Shown here one piece after another: positions 2,575-54,952 of a stretch of 64,000 nt of DNA. Positions within the stretch are counted from its first letter, which is position 1. The number at the start of each line of letters is the position of its first letter. Under the pieces are notes generated by a model that saw only the letters and a program-made list of their open reading frames with translations, was not told the DNA's origin and ran no database searches. The stretch lies in the NCBI GenBank assembly GCA_017644425.1, contig JAEPLN010000002.1, positions 41,268 through 105,267 of the forward strand, written 5' to 3'. This DNA is from Prochlorococcus marinus CUG1433 (GTDB lineage: Bacteria; Cyanobacteriota; Cyanobacteriia; PCC-6307; Cyanobiaceae). Position numbers and translations under genes: made by a program.

Positions 2575-3702
2575 GTGAATCATTTGAATGATAAAAAAGA
2601 GCTAAAGTTAATACTCATAGCAGCTAGAAATCAACTTTCTAGCGCTGATATAAAGTCTTTACTAGCTTATTTAGAATCAGATGATTGTAAATTTGAAATA
2701 TCTCTTCAGATTTCAGAACCTACAGAGCAGCCTGAATTACTTGAATTGCATAGATTAGTAGCAATTCCGGCTCTTATAAAAGTTTCTCCAGCTCCAAAGC
2801 AAATATTTGCTGGAAGTAATATTTTTTCTCAACTACAGAAATGGTTGCCGAGGTGGACACAAGAGGGCTTAACAAAAAATCTAGGAATTAATTTACAACC
2901 ATCTAAAATTGATTCAACAAGAACTCAAAAAGAATTTCTTCTTGAAGACGAACTTCTTGTTTTAAGACAAGAAAATGAGACCTTAACGAAAAGAATAGAA
3001 TCGCAAGAGAGATTATTAAGAATGGTCGCGCACGAATTAAGAACCCCCTTAACAGCCGCCACTTTGGCAGTTCAGAGTCAAAAACTTGGACAAATAAATA
3101 TTGCAAAATTGCAAGAGGTCATTAAAAGACGGTTAGAAGAGATTGAACTCTTATCTCAAGACCTTTTAGAGGTTGGAACAACCAAATGGGAAGCGTTATT
3201 TAATCCTCAGAAAATTGATTTGGGTAGTATTAGTGCTGAAGTAATACTTGAATTAGAGAAATTTTGGAGAATAAGGAATATTGAAATTGATACTGATATT
3301 CCATCAGACCTGCCAGATGTATTCGCAGATCAAAGAAGAATGAGGCAAGTATTTTTAAATTTAATTGAAAATGCAATTAAATTTTCTGAAGACGCAGGGT
3401 CTATAAAAATTACAATGATTCACAAAACGAATCAATGGGTAGAAATAACAATTTGTGACAAAGGTGCAGGTATTCCTTTGAGCGAACAAAAAAGAATTTT
3501 TCTTGATAGAGTCAGGCTTCCACAGACTTCTGAAGGTACTTCAGGATTTGGGATTGGGTTATCTGTATGTAGGAGAATAGTGCAAGTACATGGGGGAAGA
3601 ATATGGGTGGTATCTGAAATTGGTGTAGGCTCATGCTTCCATTTTACTGTTCCTGTGTGGCAAGGACAAAACAAAGAGCAACAATACTTGACGAAAGGCT
3701 AG
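2575..3702 (+). CDS. sasA: adaptive-response sensor histidine kinase SasA (KaiB-like N-domain plus HisKA/HATPase)
   Basis: 375 aa. The N-terminus is KaiB/thioredoxin-like ([11 protein letters not shown] ... [13 protein letters not shown]). H-box AHELRTPL, N-box [10 protein letters not shown]-boxes DKGAGIP and GFGIGLS. Confidence 0.9.
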
Positions 3703-23072: not shown

Positions 23073-23129
23073 ATGGGGGAAACCCCATACTCCTCACACA
23101 CTAAATCGCCCGATTAATCGGGCTTTTTT
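23073..23129 (+). ncRNA. yfr1: Yfr1 small regulatory RNA
   Basis: ATGGGG-GAAA-CCCCAT hairpin (23073-23088), the unpaired 11-nt core ACTCCTCACAC (23089-23099), then terminator GCCCG-ATTAAT-CGGGC plus T6 (23108-23129). TATTAT -10 candidate at 23061-23066. It lies in the guaB-trxA spacer, the location I remember for Yfr1 in marine picocyanobacteria. Confidence 0.8.
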
Positions 23130-46344: not shown

Positions 46345-47886
46345 TTAATCTGAAAGTTTGTACCATTCAGACTCAAGATTGGATCCAGATTCTTTATCAC
46401 AGCTTCCACCTAATGAATCAACAATTGTGCAAGTGTTGTGAACGGCTACTGAAACCGTATTACCATCCATCATCAATCCATCAACGAATATTTGATTAGA
46501 AGCTAAAGGAACTGAACTTTGTCTACTTAAGTTCCTTAATAACTTAGATGCTGGAATTTGTTCAGGAAATATCGCCTGAACTTTCTCTTCATCTAACATT
46601 TTTAAAGTAGAACTTATGTTGTCTGGCCTTAAGCTTGAGGAGTCTCCAAGAAAGTCAAGTAAACTAATGGTTTCAAAACCAAATGCATCCCCGTAGTATT
46701 CCATTGCTTTGTGTTTAGAGACAATTACTCTGTTTTCCTCAGGAATAGTGCTTACTTGTTCGACGATCCAACTATCTAAGCCTTCTAAGAGAGAATCAGT
46801 TTTTTCGAATCTTTCATTAATTAGTTTTCTGTCACCTCTATTAAAAACTGAAATATCTTTCTTTAAACTTTTGCTTATAAGATCTCCCATTTTTATGATG
46901 TTATGTGGATCATGCCATACATGTGGATCTAGACCTCCATGGTCATGATGGTGATGCCCCTCTCCTTCGTCTGGAACTTGTGCTATTGGTTCTACATCAC
47001 TATTTGAAACGTCTTTAAAAAAGTGTTGAGTTGCTTCAAACTCAAAAGGCATGTGTTCAGTAAAAAATATATATTCACCATCTTCTTTGATATCCACGTT
47101 AAAAACAGTACTTTCTTTTCTTTGATCAAAGTTAAGAACAAAAGCTTTATTACTTGCTATCAAAGTTCCATCATTTTTTCTGCTTATTGAGTCTTTAGAT
47201 CCTAATAATTCTTTGGCTAAATCTTCAGACCTTTCTATGTCATTAGATTTGAGAATCACCATCTTCATTGCAGGATCTGCATATTCGCCATCGACTTTTT
47301 CAAATGACCATTTGTATGAACCCTTAGAAAGCTGGAATTTACCTGCCCATTCGAAAGCACCCTCAGCATGATCATCATGTCCACCATGGTCTGAATGATC
47401 ATCATGACCTCCATGATCAGAATGATCATCTACCTTAGCTGAATGTTCAGCATGATCGTCATGTCCGCCATGGTCTGAGTGGTCATCGTGACCTTCATGA
47501 TCAGAATGATCATCTACGTCTATTGCACTAACACCTACAACAATAGTATTCTTTTTACTTTCCCAATTTCTCATACTTGGAGTCATTTCTTTGCCAAGAG
47601 TGAATACTTTGTCTGCGCTATTTAGTAATTGAGCTTGTCTTGGATTGATCTTTAAGTCATGAACATCCTGTTTTCTATCTACTAAGCATGTAACTTCGTC
47701 AGATGGTAACGCAATAGATTTAACTAAATCACAAACTAGTGGTTCTACTGCTACGTATGACTTCCCTTTAGCCATTACATCCTGCCCAAAACCAGAAAAT
47801 ATAATCGTTCCAGCGATTACGGAATTTTTAATAATTGACTTACTTGAACATGTTTTATTTGATAAAAGTCTTTTAAAAGTTGACAT
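46345..47886 (-). CDS. znuA: ZnuA-type (cluster A-I) periplasmic zinc-binding protein with a greatly expanded His-rich loop
   Basis: 513 aa. Signal peptide, metal-ligand contexts QDVHDL and GLDPHVWHDP, a ZnuA-like C-terminal lobe, and a ~195-aa insertion at the loop position. Confidence 0.85.
   Translation of the reverse strand: MSTFKRLLSNKTCSSKSIIKNSVIAGTIIFSGFGQDVMAKGKSYVAVEPLVCDLVKSIALPSDEVTCLVDRKQDVHDLKINPRQAQLLNSADKVFTLGKEMTPSMRNWESKKNTIVVGVSAIDVDDHSDHEGHDDHSDHGGHDDHAEHSAKVDDHSDHGGHDDHSDHGGHDDHAEGAFEWAGKFQLSKGSYKWSFEKVDGEYADPAMKMVILKSNDIERSEDLAKELLGSKDSISRKNDGTLIASNKAFVLNFDQRKESTVFNVDIKEDGEYIFFTEHMPFEFEATQHFFKDVSNSDVEPIAQVPDEGEGHHHHDHGGLDPHVWHDPHNIIKMGDLISKSLKKDISVFNRGDRKLINERFEKTDSLLEGLDSWIVEQVSTIPEENRVIVSKHKAMEYYGDAFGFETISLLDFLGDSSSLRPDNISSTLKMLDEEKVQAIFPEQIPASKLLRNLSRQSSVPLASNQIFVDGLMMDGNTVSVAVHNTCTIVDSLGGSCDKESGSNLESEWYKLSD
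47362..47517 (-). repeat. in-frame tandem duplication (84-nt period) encoding the DH-rich stretch of ZnuA
   Basis: Units 47363-47433 and 47447-47517 differ at 6 of 71 positions. They encode VDDHSDH(E/G)GHDDHSDHGGHDDHAE twice. Confidence 0.9.
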
Positions 47887-47908
47887 AAAAAATTATTAAA
47901 TACTTAAA

Positions 47909-47927
47909 AATGATAATCATTTTCATT
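47909..47927. promoter_or_regulatory. candidate Zur box in the divergent znuA / znuC promoter region
   Basis: AATGATAATCATTTTCATT is a Fur-family-type AT-rich inverted repeat, 22 nt upstream of the znuA start and 97 nt upstream of the znuC start. An extra ATGAAAAT half-site lies at 47957-47964. Confidence 0.6.
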
Positions 47928-48023
47928 ACACCTGACAAGAAAAGGTATCAAATGTTATGAAAATAATACGCAGCTTGTATTATTGGTAAGCTTGTAAAGT
48001 GACTTTTTCATGAAGATTAATTA

Positions 48024-48794
48024 ATGGCTACTTTAGTCGCTGAAAATTTAACATTTGCATACACAGAAAAAAGTAAGCCAGCTTTAAATAAGGTATCGGT
48101 TGAGATTAAACCTGGAACTCTAACAGCGCTAGTAGGCCCAAATGGTGCCGGTAAATCCACTCTTTTGAGGATATTGCAAGGACAAAATACTCCAGATAAA
48201 GGCGAAATAAAAATTGATGGTGAAAATTTATATAGATCTAGAGCTCTAGTGGCACTTATGCCTCAAAGAAGTTCTATGAATTGGAAGTTTCCCATTACAG
48301 TTGAAAAATTGGTATCTCTTGGTCAAATAAAGTATTCAAAATCAAGAAGTAATAACCCCTTTCAAATAAAGGCTCTTCTAGAATATCCTAATTCTTGGAT
48401 TAATAAATGTTGTGAATTAGAAGCGACAATGCAAAGAGTAGGAATTGCTAATTTGGCTAATAGAAGACTTGATTCTCTTTCAGGAGGACAGCAACAAAGA
48501 GCTCTATTAGCAAAAACTCTTATGTCCCCTGCAAAAATATTTCTTCTGGATGAACCTTGTGCGGCATTGGATCCCCCCGCAAAAGAGGACTTCCTGAAAA
48601 TTGTTCGTCAACTCGCAGATGCGGGACTTTCTTTGCTAGTAAGTAGCCATGATTGGGGCGAGTCTCTAAATAACTACGATCAAGTAATCGTTCTTGATAA
48701 AAGTGTTTTAGCAGTTGGTAGTCCTGATCAAATAAAAGATAAATTAGATGCGATAAACATAAGCTCTATAAAGGAAAATAATTTCTGTGATTAG
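48024..48794 (+). CDS. znuC: zinc/manganese-type ABC transporter ATP-binding protein
   Basis: 256 aa. Walker A GPNGAGKST, signature LSGGQQQR, Walker B IFLLDEP. Confidence 0.85.
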   Translation: MATLVAENLTFAYTEKSKPALNKVSVEIKPGTLTALVGPNGAGKSTLLRILQGQNTPDKGEIKIDGENLYRSRALVALMPQRSSMNWKFPITVEKLVSLGQIKYSKSRSNNPFQIKALLEYPNSWINKCCELEATMQRVGIANLANRRLDSLSGGQQQRALLAKTLMSPAKIFLLDEPCAALDPPAKEDFLKIVRQLADAGLSLLVSSHDWGESLNNYDQVIVLDKSVLAVGSPDQIKDKLDAINISSIKENNFCD

Positions 48795-48807
48795 AAAATG
48801 TTCCTTA

Positions 48808-49242
48808 TTAATTTTGAGCTTGATAACAGTTTTGGCAAAGGCCGAAATATTCGAGTGTATGAAACAAAAGTTGAAACTTTCTTGGATTTTTTTTAGGGGC
48901 ATGAATATCTTTAACAGGACAACCTTCCATTTTCGACGTCTCTCCGCATTGAACGCAGGTCAAATGATGAATGTCTCTATCTACGGGAGTGTAAAGAACC
49001 TCTCCTGTTGGGAGATGTCTAGAACGAATTAAACCATGCTTTATAAGAACTTGAAGATTCCTGTAAACAGTGGTCAGTCCCATAGCTTTTCCGCTTTCAA
49101 TCAATTGTCTATGCAACTCTTGACCGCTCAGTTCATCCTCGCATTTATTAAGTTCTTCAAGAAGTTGCTCTTGTCTTTTGGTAATGTCAGACTTAGTTAC
49201 CATTGTTTCCAAAATCTTTTTTTGCCTCGTATTTTTGATCAT
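48808..49242 (-). CDS. zur: Fur-family metalloregulator, Zur by context
   Basis: 144 aa. Winged helix (TTVYRNLQVL), HHLTCVQCG and CQNC Cys pairs. The start may instead be Met14 (49203). Confidence 0.85.
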   Translation of the reverse strand: MIKNTRQKKILETMVTKSDITKRQEQLLEELNKCEDELSGQELHRQLIESGKAMGLTTVYRNLQVLIKHGLIRSRHLPTGEVLYTPVDRDIHHLTCVQCGETSKMEGCPVKDIHAPKKNPRKFQLLFHTLEYFGLCQNCYQAQN

Positions 49243-49259
49243 ACCGAATCTTTCGAATA

Positions 49260-50045
49260 ATGTCTTTTATTAATAACAACTGGTGGTTGGTTCCATTAAT
49301 AATAACTATATTTTCTGGGATCTTATGCCCAGCGATGGGAACTGTATTAATCACCCATAAGAGATTATTACAAGTTAATTTAATCTCTCATTGCGTGTTG
49401 CCTGGACTTGCTCTCGCATTAGCGCTTGGAATTCACCCTTCAATTGGTGGTGTTATAAGTGGTCTTTTAGGCTCGGTAATTGCGGAAAGTTTAACCAATA
49501 GAAAAAGTGAAAATTATGAAGCAGTTATGAATACTATTCTTGCTGGAATGCTTGGGTTTGGAGTCCTTATTATCCCTCTACTCGGAATAAGGATTGATTT
49601 GGAGGCAGTATTATTTGGCGATTTATTGACAGCAAATTTTGGAGATTTACTTAGAACAATAATTGCTTTTTTAGTATTTATACTTTTAATGACTTTTGGA
49701 TATGAAAAGGTTGTTTATGTGGGATTGGATCCGGAAGGTGCATCCGCGAGTGGTATAAACGTTTCTTTATTAAATCTTGCTTTGAGTTTTACAACTGCAT
49801 TAGTAATTGTTAGTTCAATGTCAGCAGTGGGAGTAATTCTTGTAATTGCTCTTCTTTCTACGCCAACTTTGTTAGGGCTAAATAAGGCTCATAGTTTAAG
49901 AATTGCAATGATGAGGTCTTCATTTTTTGGATTATGTATCTCACTTCTTGGATTCATTCTCTCTATTGTCTTTAATCTTTCGCCTGGACCTGCAATTAGC
50001 GTTATTTGTGTTGCGTCCCTTTTAATTCCTAAGCTTCGCAAATAA
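49260..50045 (+). CDS. znuB: zinc/manganese-type ABC transporter permease
   Basis: 261 aa with about 8 TM helices. ABC-3 family pattern. Confidence 0.85.
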   Translation: MSFINNNWWLVPLIITIFSGILCPAMGTVLITHKRLLQVNLISHCVLPGLALALALGIHPSIGGVISGLLGSVIAESLTNRKSENYEAVMNTILAGMLGFGVLIIPLLGIRIDLEAVLFGDLLTANFGDLLRTIIAFLVFILLMTFGYEKVVYVGLDPEGASASGINVSLLNLALSFTTALVIVSSMSAVGVILVIALLSTPTLLGLNKAHSLRIAMMRSSFFGLCISLLGFILSIVFNLSPGPAISVICVASLLIPKLRK

Positions 50046-50192
50046 TTAAATCTTAAATGTCCAATCAGAATTTAATGCTTGAGCTTCTGGATTGTTTTTT
50101 AAAGCTACTTCCATAGCTTCTTTTTTATTATTAGCTATAACAACTTCATCAAATTCCTTTCCATTTTTTTTGAGACTTACTTTGAAACGCAT
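50046..50192 (-). CDS. hypothetical 48-aa protein
   Basis: Below the ORF-track cutoff. Translation MRFKVSLKKNGKEFDEVVIANNKKEAMEVALKNNPEAQALNSDWTFKI has balanced composition and a plausible small alpha/beta fold. Confidence 0.4.
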   Translation of the reverse strand: MRFKVSLKKNGKEFDEVVIANNKKEAMEVALKNNPEAQALNSDWTFKI

Positions 50193-50275
50193 AAAAATTA
50201 TTTAATTAATTAAAAGTTAACCACTAAGCAACTAGATTTAAATACTTTTAAAAGTTAATTGATGAAATAGAAACT

Positions 50276-50533
50276 TTAGTTATTCTGAAGTTTTTCTACT
50301 ACAGATTCTTTTTCAATTTTAGCTACATCCTGTAATCCATTAGCATCAAACCAAGGAGCGTTTTCCCAATTAAATCCTTCCCCAAAAGTATTATCGGGAG
50401 CAGCTACGTACCAATGACATGATGAATCGGGAACATCTACAGCACATTTTGACCAGTCAGCTTCCCACTGAGGAACTTGTACCCACATCACAGATGCTAA
50501 TAAAAAAGAAAAAATAAAATTCATAATTATCAT
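50276..50533 (-). CDS. hypothetical secreted Trp-rich small protein
   Basis: 85 aa. Signal peptide, 2 Cys and many Trp/acidic residues. Confidence 0.5.
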   Translation of the reverse strand: MIIMNFIFSFLLASVMWVQVPQWEADWSKCAVDVPDSSCHWYVAAPDNTFGEGFNWENAPWFDANGLQDVAKIEKESVVEKLQNN

Positions 50534-50677
50534 TTAGCAAAATTTTGAAAGATTTTTTTCACATTCTTTCTTTCTTTTCTTCCAGTAATTCTCAAGTATT
50601 TGATATTTATGCTTATTTTTGAATTTACTTAAATGAATATTCTTCTGATTAAGAACTGAAGTATTTTTGATTTGCAT
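50534..50677 (-). CDS. hypothetical 47-aa basic protein
   Basis: Hand-translated as MQIKNTSVLNQKNIHLSKFKNKHKYQILENYWKKRKKECEKNLSKFC. Its stop abuts the start of the 50276..50533 ORF. Confidence 0.25.
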   Translation of the reverse strand: MQIKNTSVLNQKNIHLSKFKNKHKYQILENYWKKRKKECEKNLSKFC

Positions 50678-50755
50678 GACTTAAGACTGTCTATGTAAGA
50701 CATATTTAAGACACTTTATAGATTTTTTGAAGTGAATTTATACTTAATTTTTGTC

Positions 50756-50890
50756 TTACTTTTGTGTAGGTAAGTATTTTTCTGGATTATTTTCAATATA
50801 AGTAAGCGAATAATTGACAACACCTACTATTACTGAAAAAAGAGCAATTGCCGAAATAATAAAAATGATTTTTTTATAAATGCTTTTCAT
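50756..50890 (-). CDS. hypothetical 44-aa single-TM protein
   Basis: Hand-translated as MKSIYKKIIFIISAIALFSVIVGVVNYSLTYIENNPEKYLPTQK. Confidence 0.3.
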   Translation of the reverse strand: MKSIYKKIIFIISAIALFSVIVGVVNYSLTYIENNPEKYLPTQK

Positions 50891-50977
50891 CAATTTTTTA
50901 TGTTTTTGATTATTTTTTTCATCAACGCGCAATTTTTCTGAAAGATTTAAATAATTAGTAATTTATACTGTAGCCTT

Positions 50978-51087
50978 TTAAATTACCTTCAGAGTAGATT
51001 AAATACATCAGAAACTCCTCACACACTTTTTTCTGATAACTTTAAAAGTACTCCGACCTCGATGTTTGAGTACTTTTTATATTTTTT
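50978..51087 (+). ncRNA. candidate sRNA carrying the exact Yfr1 core motif (Yfr1-like paralogue); 5' end uncertain
   Basis: TATACT -10 candidate at 50965-50970. Hairpin ATCAGAAA/TTTCTGAT (51007-51014 with 51030-51037) presents CTCCTCACACAC in its loop; ACTCCTCACAC spans 51014-51024. Terminator AAAAGTACTC/GAGTACTTTT (51044-51077) is followed by a T-rich tail. No ORF. Confidence 0.5.
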
Positions 51088-51157
51088 GCCATGTGACAGT
51101 TAAGATAGAGGTCTATTAATCATTACATATTTTGAATTTAGGTGTGATATTAGTATT

Positions 51158-51253
51158 GTGTGTAGGAGGAATTGATTTATTTCAGTGGAAACAAGGAAAC
51201 ACTTGATATAAATCAATTTTAAAAGATCTCTCTCTGAGAGGTCTTTTTTTTTT
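51158..51253 (+). ncRNA. candidate Yfr2-family sRNA
   Basis: 5' GTGTGTAGGAGGA (51158-51170) is nearly complementary to the Yfr1 core. Long hairpin AATTGATTTAT/ATAAATCAATT (51170-51180 with 51208-51218) has its tip showing GGAAACAAGGAAACA (two GGAAACA-type motifs, which I recall as the Yfr2-family hallmark). Terminator GATCTCTC/GAGAGGTC plus T10 (51225-51253). Confidence 0.6.
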
Positions 51254-51382
51254 GGGATTATTAGAAATATATATTAAATTCTGACTATAAAAACATATAT
51301 GCTTTCTTCCAAAATAATTAGCTCGTCATTACAAATTAGTAATTTAATTCGTTAGATTACGAGTTGTTAAATTCTTCTTTTA

Positions 51383-51766
51383 ATGCAAATACTTTTTTTA
51401 GCAATTTTAATTTGTTCAAGCTTTTTATTCCCCTCTTCATCATTTGCCTCACATATAGAACTAAAACCTTGTGTAGAGATTGCTCATTGTGTACGAGAAG
51501 AATGGGAGGTAAACAATATTGAGAAACCTTTTGAAGAGATTAAAGCATTTATCGAAAACACTCCAAGAACTGAGATTGTTGAAATTGATGGCGATTATCT
51601 TCATGCTGAGGCAACCAGTAAATGGATGAAGTACGTAGACGACTTAGAAGTATCCTTTCTACCTGAATCAAACATCTTATCAATAAGATCAGAATCAAGA
51701 GTTGGAGAAAGTGATTTGGGCGTGAATCAAAAAAGAGTTGATTTACTAAAATCGAAAATGTTTTAA
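51383..51766 (+). CDS. DUF1499 family protein with signal peptide
   Basis: 127 aa. The tail pattern ...DDLEVSF...SIRSESRVGESDLGVNQKRV is DUF1499-like (from memory). Confidence 0.65.
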   Translation: MQILFLAILICSSFLFPSSSFASHIELKPCVEIAHCVREEWEVNNIEKPFEEIKAFIENTPRTEIVEIDGDYLHAEATSKWMKYVDDLEVSFLPESNILSIRSESRVGESDLGVNQKRVDLLKSKMF

Positions 51767-51848
51767 AATAAAGAGTAAAAAAAAATAATTTTTTTATTGT
51801 TTTTTGTATAACTTTTCCATTTAAAAAAAAAATTAGCAGATAAAAAAG

Positions 51849-51875
51849 TGATAATTGTCATCATGCCTTGATAAT
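51849..51875. promoter_or_regulatory. possible Fur-family operator (two TGATAAT half-sites)
   Basis: TGATAATTGTCATCA (51849-51863) has TGAT/ATCA palindromic ends, and a second TGATAAT lies at 51869-51875. Both are 30-55 nt upstream of the 51905 ORF. Confidence 0.3.
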
Positions 51876-51904
51876 GGCAAATTTATTAGATTTTCTCTAA
51901 AAAG

Positions 51905-52189
51905 ATGATCATAAATTTTATATATTTATTGTTATTTAGTTTTGTTTTTTTCTGGTTTTATATAAACATAAAAAAAAATGGACTTAAATGGATAATCAAA
52001 GGTCTTTTTCAAATTGGAATATTGGTATTATTCATTGGAGGGTTTTTCAAAATATTTTTCACCTTACCCCCTAATTTATTTATAAAAATATTTTTTCTTA
52101 TTATTTATACATGGTGCACTATTGGAATAAATGTTAATTTCATGATCCCTTTGATTAGTTTGATTGACCAAAAAATAATGAAAAAATAA
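51905..52189 (+). CDS. hypothetical membrane protein
   Basis: 94 aa with 3 hydrophobic helices. Confidence 0.45.
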   Translation: MIINFIYLLLFSFVFFWFYINIKKNGLKWIIKGLFQIGILVLFIGGFFKIFFTLPPNLFIKIFFLIIYTWCTIGINVNFMIPLISLIDQKIMKK

Positions 52190-52264
52190 AACTAAAATTT
52201 GCCTTAATTCTTAGTACAAAAATAAATCTATTTAGTTAATCTGCAATATTAAAATTTATAAGAT

Positions 52265-52375
52265 TTATTTTTTTCCTTTTGAAAGTCTTTTTCTTGTATA
52301 CCTAGTCTTTAATGCCAAGTCTGTCATTACATATATTCCAAATAAAAGAATGAATATTCCAATAAAGTATTTCAT
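52265..52375 (-). CDS. hypothetical 36-aa single-TM peptide
   Basis: Hand-translated as MKYFIGIFILLFGIYVMTDLALKTRYTRKRLSKGKK. Confidence 0.25.
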   Translation of the reverse strand: MKYFIGIFILLFGIYVMTDLALKTRYTRKRLSKGKK

Positions 52376-52405
52376 TATTTTTTATGTAATTACTATGTTT
52401 GAGAT

Positions 52406-52813
52406 TTATTCATTATGCCAACTAATTTTAATATCTATTTCTTGAGATAAATTTCTTGTAACTGGACATTCTTTGGATGCTTTTTTCAAAAAATCAATAG
52501 TTTCATTAGAAGTGCTCACTGGTATAAAAATATCTATTATTAGTTCTTTTATCTTCCTCTCGCTATTTTGTGTCATTACTTTTTCAATATTTAAGTATAT
52601 ACCTTTCAAATCAAATCCTTTTGATTTAGCTTTGATTGCCATAATGGTTAGCAGGCAAGTACCTAGAGATGTTGCTAATAAATCAGTTGGGGAAAAACTT
52701 TCACCTTTACCGCAGTGATCTAAAGGTGCATCAGTTCTAATAAGACATCCAGATTGTAGATGAATAGCCTCACAGTTTAAATTTCCTAAATAAGAACATT
52801 TAACTTTGGTCAT
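52406..52813 (-). CDS. OsmC/Ohr-family peroxiredoxin-like protein
   Basis: 135 aa. OsmC pattern (FSPTDLLATSLGTCLL ... KECPVT) with the two conserved Cys. Confidence 0.8.
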   Translation of the reverse strand: MTKVKCSYLGNLNCEAIHLQSGCLIRTDAPLDHCGKGESFSPTDLLATSLGTCLLTIMAIKAKSKGFDLKGIYLNIEKVMTQNSERKIKELIIDIFIPVSTSNETIDFLKKASKECPVTRNLSQEIDIKISWHNE

Positions 52814-54230: not shown

Positions 54231-54506
54231 AAATTATTTATTTCTTTTTGGATAATCATCTTTACAATTTTGATTCTTCAAATGAAACTGTGATATTTTC
54301 TTGTCAAATTAATATTTAAATAAAATTTGGATAATAAAGAGCCAGAAAATCCAGTCGTTTATCTTTCTAATTTAGTCAAGAAATTAGATGTAAAAAACAG
54401 AAATGGTTTAGTAGCATTAGCAATAGTAAACCTTTTAGTAATACTTTTATTTAAATTTTATTTGAAAGGATCTGGATTATTATCTTGAATTTGCCTGCTG
54501 GTATTA

Positions 54507-54821
54507 TTATTCAGCATTCTCAAATTGCTTTGCTAATCTAAATGCCTTCTTAATTATTAGAAAGCCACCATATGCTCCTGCCAGTAAAGGTAATACTATT
54601 AGAGGGTTAGGGGAATAATCTGAATAATTTTTCACACCCTCAACATATTCATAACCTGAACATTTAAGAATGATAAAGCTAAAAAATGTGATACTCCAAC
54701 CAATGATTGATAAAAATCCACCTTTTTTATCTCCTTCATAAAATCTGTCTAGACCTAAGCCCCAACCTCCTATTAGGAATATTCCTCTAACAACTGAATT
54801 TTTTTCTTGATTTCTAAGCAT
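54507..54821 (-). CDS. TM2-domain-like membrane protein
   Basis: 104 aa. GLDRFYEGDKKGG resembles the G-x-(D/H)-R-F-Y-x-G TM2 signature between two helices. Confidence 0.55.
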   Translation of the reverse strand: MLRNQEKNSVVRGIFLIGGWGLGLDRFYEGDKKGGFLSIIGWSITFFSFIILKCSGYEYVEGVKNYSDYSPNPLIVLPLLAGAYGGFLIIKKAFRLAKQFENAE

Positions 54822-54952
54822 AATAAAAAAATGTTCATTATGTACGTAACCTATTTGTATTTAAGATGTGAGATGTTTTTATTAATTAATCTTTAAAATA
54901 AATTTTTAATGGTTTTTTCTATAAATTACAAAATTATTATTCAGTGTTTTAA

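Follow-up and report, generated by a model that had tools for sequence, protein, structure and literature searches.

In bacteria, sRNA sponges and anti-sRNAs such as the GlmY/GlmZ system provide a mode of regulation in which one small RNA governs the availability of another. Among the post-transcriptional circuits of Prochlorococcus, the most abundant marine phototroph, the Yfr1/Yfr10-Yfr2 network is a major one and touches both carbon and nitrogen metabolism. In strain MED4, the Yfr10, Yfr12 and Yfr18 RNAs each adjoin an RNA of the Yfr2 type, namely Yfr2, Yfr4 and Yfr5, respectively. The Yfr10 motif ACUCCUCACAC(AC) is common to Yfr1 and Yfr18 and occurs in a mutated version in Yfr12, and pairing was proposed between the sequences aCUCCUcACACAC and GUGUGUAGGAG (Steglich 2008, PMC2518516). 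In later experiments, Yfr1 and Yfr10 were pulled down by Yfr2, which blocked the binding of both RNAs to the ppa mRNA and was itself shielded from RNase E by the pairing (Lambrecht 2019, PMC6778093). These pairing experiments used the MED4 RNAs Yfr10 and Yfr2, not Yfr18 and Yfr5. The same study described the motif as located in a loop in Yfr10 and between two hairpins in Yfr1, and reported that homologues of Yfr10 in high-light strains are encoded upstream of those of Yfr2 (PMC6778093).

Members of the Yfr2 family are recognized by a 5' hairpin whose loop carries a GGAAACA repeat, a single-stranded 5' end of the form GUGUG(U)AGGAG and a terminator, and comprise about 89-95 nt in all (PMC1242208); the family is characterized by the Cyano-1 motif (PMC8400943).

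In this work, we analyzed two adjacent sRNA genes, referred to as unit 1 and unit 2, in a 64-kb stretch of Prochlorococcus DNA (the window). With high confidence, we interpret them as a conserved core-genome tandem of a Yfr10-family and a Yfr2-family RNA of high-light-adapted Prochlorococcus, whose positional orthologue in MED4 is most likely Yfr18-Yfr5. Such tandems are already known from a description in 2008 and experimental tests in 2019, and the window pair is one more copy of the published pair rather than a new kind of element. The modest additions made here include the distinction of two tandem types, an island type with a full CGRE1 operator and a core type with half of it, and evidence for a fixed site of the core type, between znuB and a DUF1499 gene, across HL genomes.

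Two predicted sRNA genes of the Yfr10 and Yfr2 families

Scanned against the full Rfam collection with curated cut-offs, the window gave four matches: Yfr10, Cyano-1, Yfr1 and one tRNA. The Yfr10 match (RF02362, 57.9 bits against a cut-off of 43) covers the full length of the model and defines unit 1 at 51007-51089 on the forward strand. Its sequence ACUCCUCACACAC, the Yfr1/Yfr10 seed motif, is an exact match at 51014-51026 (+). In the minimum free energy structure computed by RNAfold, an 8-bp stem (51007-51037) closes a 15-nt loop that holds this motif, and a terminator hairpin at 51044-51077 and a U-tract come next. In the structural ensemble, the mean unpaired probability of the motif is 0.94. 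Across 103 sequences, 97.3% of the cells in the unit-1 stems form pairs, with few compensatory changes, because these sequences come from close relatives. The terminator has a modest stem and an interrupted U-tract, and was missed by the terminator scan because it holds too few G-C pairs for the scan rule.

The DNA form of the motif, ACTCCTCACACAC, occurs in two exact copies in the 64-kb window, one in unit 1 and the other at 23089-23101 inside canonical Yfr1; when up to two mismatches are allowed, there are three matches versus 0.35 expected. Canonical Yfr1 itself (RF01116, 58 bits) occupies 23073-23126 on the forward strand, between ORFs of 391 and 107 aa whose sizes fit guaB and trxA, the neighbours of yfr1 in the literature. 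Unit 1 shares with Yfr1 the identical 13-nt motif and the predicted pairing with the same Yfr2-family 5' end. Unlike Yfr1, which presents the motif between two hairpins and is encoded between guaB and trxA, unit 1 carries it in a hairpin loop and is flanked by znuB and the DUF1499 gene, and the Yfr1 model gave no match in the interval 49500-52500, unit 1 included, at E values up to 10. Unit 1 is a Yfr1-motif paralogue that displays the motif in a hairpin loop. Like other Yfr10-family members, it exposes ACUCCUCACAC(AC) in a 5' hairpin loop with a terminator hairpin after it, and is positioned directly upstream of a Yfr2 homologue on the same strand, approximately 70 nt before the Cyano-1 match.

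Unit 2 (51158-51253, forward strand) starts with GUGUGUAGGAG and measures 96 nt up to the end of its U-run. It is assigned to the Yfr2 family by a full-length match to Cyano-1 at 51156-51223 (RF01701, 80.5 bits against a cut-off of 41), and the secondary structure supports this assignment. RNAfold leaves the 5' end unpaired and predicts a long hairpin at 51168-51220, whose loop displays GGAAACAAGGAAACA with the GGAAACA repeat at 51187-51201; the terminator follows at 51221-51247, with a run of ten T residues (U10 in the RNA) at 51244-51253 that was also found by the terminator scan. Compensatory changes were observed in 13 of the 20 predicted pairs of the hairpin and terminator, around a loop that is invariant in all sequences compared (25/25). 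The 5' sequence GTGTGTAGGAG has one exact copy in the window, at 51158-51168. A near-match, GTATGTAGGAG, at position 3565 was considered as a second Yfr2 and rejected as a chance occurrence inside a coding sequence.

Taken together, these data support the prediction of two separate sRNA genes. Much of the original prediction was borne out by this part of the analysis: motif search and RNAfold agree on the exact Yfr1 core motif in the loop of an 8-bp hairpin with its own terminator; no forward-strand ORF of at least 30 aa was detected in unit 1, as had been claimed, or in unit 2; the RNA approximately 70 nt downstream is Yfr2-like and ends in a U10 terminator; and the Rfam covariance scan proposed at that time placed both units above the curated cut-offs, with unit 1 identified as Yfr10 and not as Yfr1.

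Predicted base pairing and proposed mode of action

The 5' end of unit 2 is nearly complementary to the Yfr1 motif, and duplex formation was calculated for both potential partners. Using ViennaRNA cofold, we obtained a duplex of 11 bp with one bulged C between unit 1 and unit 2. The original prediction had placed a 2-nt bulge between 6 and 5 bp; the extent of the pairing was confirmed, and this register, while not the one selected by cofold, is also valid and contains just as many pairs. The predicted ddG of the duplex between unit 1 and unit 2 is -10.7 kcal/mol and that of the duplex between Yfr1 and unit 2 is -16.1 kcal/mol; these values were matched in only 1/300, 1/300 and 6/300 trials after shuffling of the unit-1 loop, the Yfr1 linker and the unit-2 5' end, respectively. 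Cofold ddG values with region-specific shuffles were used instead of duplexfold on the full-length RNAs, which was uninformative (shuffled sequences scored equally). The pairing motifs are 92-100% unpaired in the ensembles. An 11-bp helix within a 15-nt loop is strained, and cofold opened the stem of unit 1 to form the duplex.

By extension from MED4, unit 1 would act like Yfr1, with an exposed anti-Shine-Dalgarno-like sequence, CUCCUCACAC, pairing with mRNAs. The single-stranded SD-like GUGUGUAGGAG of unit 2 would pair with the motif of Yfr1 and of Yfr10-family RNAs and so keep these RNAs from their targets by titration; while paired, unit 2 itself may be guarded from RNase E. The side-by-side position of the genes may favour the encounter of both RNAs or allow their co-transcription by read-through. 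Unlike sRNA sponges such as GlmY/GlmZ, the window pair is encoded by adjacent genes and is predicted to act through direct pairing between conserved, complementary seeds. The proposal that the locus encodes an sRNA together with its anti-sRNA agrees with the published experiments on MED4 (PMC2518516, PMC6778093).

A fixed site in the core genome

A scan of a genome collection for both motifs at the spacing of the window yielded at least 120 loci, all from Prochlorococcus, including strains MIT 9302, 9322, 9107, 9201, 9314, SB and SS51; the survey of other strains for this tandem, suggested at the outset, thus recovered the same layout many times. Since the loci were chosen for carrying both motifs, conservation of the motifs themselves among them is circular. 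Of the 120 matches listed, 104 align colinearly with positions 50900-51300 of the window (83-97% identity). Among the loci selected for the pair, ZnuB is encoded upstream in 95/96 informative cases, a 58-aa ORF is found upstream in 112/117, and the DUF1499 gene is found downstream in 105/106, including genomes that are only ~77-79% identical in DNA, so that the order znuB-sRNA pair-DUF1499 recurs in approximately 105 of the 106 informative Prochlorococcus loci selected in this way.

The original prediction had located the pair in a variable islet, as a cassette of an sRNA and its anti-sRNA that could retune the Yfr1 regulon in a strain-specific way. Many small ORFs around the pair, as well as the presence of the MED4 Yfr10-Yfr2 pair in the genomic island ISL1, would fit the acquisition of such a cassette; they are outweighed by the colinearity across the pair and by the conservation of all three flanking genes, including in genomes that are only ~77-79% identical, which make it extremely improbable. 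Because of this colinearity and these conserved flanks across the Prochlorococcus loci selected for the pair, which occupies the same syntenic position in more than 100 genomes, we conclude that the pair is at a fixed core site and is neither in a variable islet nor strain-specific.

Several observations concern the neighbourhood of this site. A zinc-uptake cluster adjoins the pair at 46345-50045 of the window and comprises znuA (-), a znuC-like ABC ATPase gene (+), a gene for a Fur-family regulator (-) and znuB (+); the ZnuA protein of the window has a long His/Asp-rich repeat, DDHSDHGGHDDH.... In five loci from genomes that are ~77-79% identical to the window (L045, L071, L027, L068 and L014), the DUF1499 gene is separated from the sRNA pair by approximately 300-350 bases more than in the window type. 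Further downstream, fewer related loci align with 54500-54900 (about 54-56, versus about 76-79 just before), and there may be a small variable spot around a 104-aa ORF at 54507-54821. Two loci on the same contig (L002 and L038, both QCEN01000015.1) were not accepted as two pairs on one contig, as their identical flanks in inverted orientation probably reflect a chimeric single-cell assembly.

Relation to the MED4 tandems

In MED4, yfr1 is located at complement(1000744..1000797) and yfr5 at complement(972088..972176) (PMC1242208). Yfr18, at complement(972284..972388), lies outside any island and has homologues in all listed HL strains (PMC2518516). Unit 1 lies 27.9 kb from Yfr1, as compared with 28.4 kb between yfr1 and Yfr18 in MED4, and in both genomes the genes share one strand and follow the same order. 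The window pair is most likely of the Yfr18-Yfr5 type, since it is found approximately 28 kb downstream of yfr1, outside an island, with half of the CGRE1 operator cut off by the upstream terminator; the orthology is deduced from position and promoter anatomy. In both tandems, a motif RNA immediately precedes a Yfr2-family RNA encoded on the same strand. They differ in their start-to-start spacing (212 nt published for MED4 versus ~180 nt in the window) and in the drawn orientation of PMM1027 relative to the DUF1499 ORF of the window. In addition, the window DNA is not from MED4, and over this region its genome shows 92-97% identity to loci of HLII strains such as MIT 9302 and MIT 9201.

Orthology with the island pair Yfr10-Yfr2 of MED4 was considered as well. 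The two tandems represent the same families (RF02362 and RF01701) and are alike in their motifs, the presentation of the motif in a loop, the tandem order and the proposed pairing, which was tested experimentally on this MED4 pair. Moreover, the sole Rfam model available for unit 1 is named Yfr10, and both MED4 pairs show the same succession of a divergent small ORF, a motif RNA and a Yfr2-type RNA. The details that tell the two pairs apart favour Yfr18-Yfr5: seed-type Yfr10 copies in the loci examined score ~99 bits on RF02362 versus 57.9 bits for unit 1, have a different terminator (AAACACCC...GGGUGUUUUUU in MED4) and a spacer approximately 25 nt longer, and precede a complete CGRE1 palindrome; the MED4 pair resides in ISL1, whereas the window locus is not in an island and, like Yfr18, is about 28 kb from yfr1. 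Orthology with the island pair is therefore improbable, and unit 1 and unit 2 are referred to below as being of the Yfr18 and Yfr5 types, respectively.

Transcription starts and promoter elements

A simple promoter scan flagged neither sRNA promoter, and the elements described here were read from the sequence and its conservation. Upstream of unit 1, a block at ~50955-50990 is at least 90-98% conserved in 119 distinct loci and contains a candidate -10 box, TATACT, at 50964-50969 (+), which would place the start site near 50976-50978. In MED4, the annotated 105-nt region of Yfr18 gives rise to species of 29 and 76 nt (PMC2518516). These sizes fit a 29-nt leader at 50978-51006 (+) plus an RNA from the hairpin start at 51007 to approximately 51084, and a unit-1 start at 50978 is plausible from this comparison. 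With TAGATT at 50995-51000 as an alternative -10 box, the start would shift to 51007, which coincides with the start of the Rfam model.

In locus L192, a seed-type Yfr10 copy has a similar block, ATAGTAATTAATACTGTAG, in front of it. The common form of the block, TAGTAATT(T/A)ATACTGTAG, found at 50955-50990 in the window and at ~870-940 on the reverse strand in L192, is thus located upstream of Yfr18-type copies and of one seed-type Yfr10, and could be a shared promoter or a regulator site.

The promoter of unit 2 was compared with those of other Yfr2 copies, which are preceded by the full CGRE1 palindrome, AACTGnCACATGTGACAGTT, in the promoter alignment; this consensus was derived from the promoters of these other copies and not from the published figure. 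A first guess at the consensus, GTTAnnnGTGTACACnnnTAAC, was wrong and had zero matches in the window. CGRE1 is the operator bound by the GntR regulator PMM1637 (PMC6191309); it is present in some Yfr2 members and is not strictly defining for the family. Unit 2 has its right half only, ATGTGACAGTTAAG at 51091-51104 (+), and TGTGACAG is at least 98% conserved; the U-tail of the unit-1 terminator takes the place of the left half. The same was described for MED4, where the yfr5 promoter keeps half of CGRE1, the yfr18 terminator disrupts the other half, and PMM1637 did not shift the yfr5 promoter (Lambrecht 2018, PMC6191309). Because only half of CGRE1 is retained in its promoter, unit 2 of the window probably escapes the strong control that PMM1637 exerts on Yfr2 and Yfr4.

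Truncation of the operator, together with the modest stem and interrupted U-tract of the unit-1 terminator, could also mean that transcription from the unit-1 promoter mostly reads through both units, with later processing of the joint RNA, and that unit 2 is not an independent gene. A 270-nt precursor containing Yfr10 and Yfr2 was indeed seen in MED4 (Steglich 2008, PMC2518516). This scenario is nevertheless unlikely, given a candidate extended -10 box, TGTGATATT, that is conserved at 51143-51151 (+), 6-7 nt before G51158, and given that in MED4 the 5' ends of all four copies yfr2-5 were mapped by RACE, with -10 elements deduced (PMC1242208). We retain unit 2 as a separate gene with a putative promoter of its own.

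Directly after the half CGRE1, a dyad, ATAGA-GG-TCTAT, was observed at 51105-51116 (+). It is mostly at least 90% conserved, is kept across syntenic loci and is absent from the full-CGRE1 promoters.

The core pair of the Yfr18/Yfr5 type may conceivably be subject to a regulation other than that of the Yfr2 and Yfr4 copies under CGRE1 control, a tentative proposal to which we assign a low probability. It is suggested by the conservation of ATGTGACAGTTAAG and the adjacent dyad ATAGAGGTCTAT in >100 genomes despite the lack of a PMM1637 shift at MED4 yfr5, and by the occurrence of the block TAGTAATTnATACTGTAG upstream of Yfr18-type copies and one seed-type Yfr10. The three elements ATGTGACAGTTAAG, ATAGAGGTCTAT and TAGTAATTnATACTGTAG could be sites of another regulator, for example in the light/dark control of Yfr10, whose regulator is reported as unknown.

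Other tandem arrangements

Outside the znuB-DUF1499 site, a scaffold of Prochlorococcus HNLC1 (GL947594, locus L034) carries two Yfr10 plus Cyano-1 pairs in series at 537-1615. One pair comprises 687-766 with 537-604 and the other 1536-1615 with 1385-1452; both are located ~3.7 kb from the tmRNA gene and have neither znuB nor DUF1499 flanks.

As an unbiased sample, a scan of metagenomes was anchored on the Yfr2 loop alone and yielded 102 loci with enough upstream sequence, in 37 of which ACTCCTCACAC occurs within 300 nt upstream. Three viral-contig matches to the loop were discarded, as they lack the 5' motif of Yfr2 and do not represent Yfr2 genes.

Among these loci, a second type of tandem was observed in metagenome contigs (L126, L134, L180, L175, L189, L197 and L208), with a different, more G+C-rich Yfr2 stem and an RNA carrying CAACUCCUCACACAA(U) approximately 120-185 nt upstream of the Cyano-1/Yfr2 loop. 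Yfr10 gave no match at the Rfam gathering score in the four contigs of this type that were scanned (L126, L134, L180 and L175). The 5' end of the Yfr2 RNA in the second type, UUGUGAGGAG, is a perfect 10-bp complement of CAACUCCUCACACAA with no bulge. These are signs, and a further modest addition to the published picture, that tandems of a motif RNA and a Yfr2 RNA also occur with a G+C-richer Yfr2 stem and perfect 10-bp pairing.
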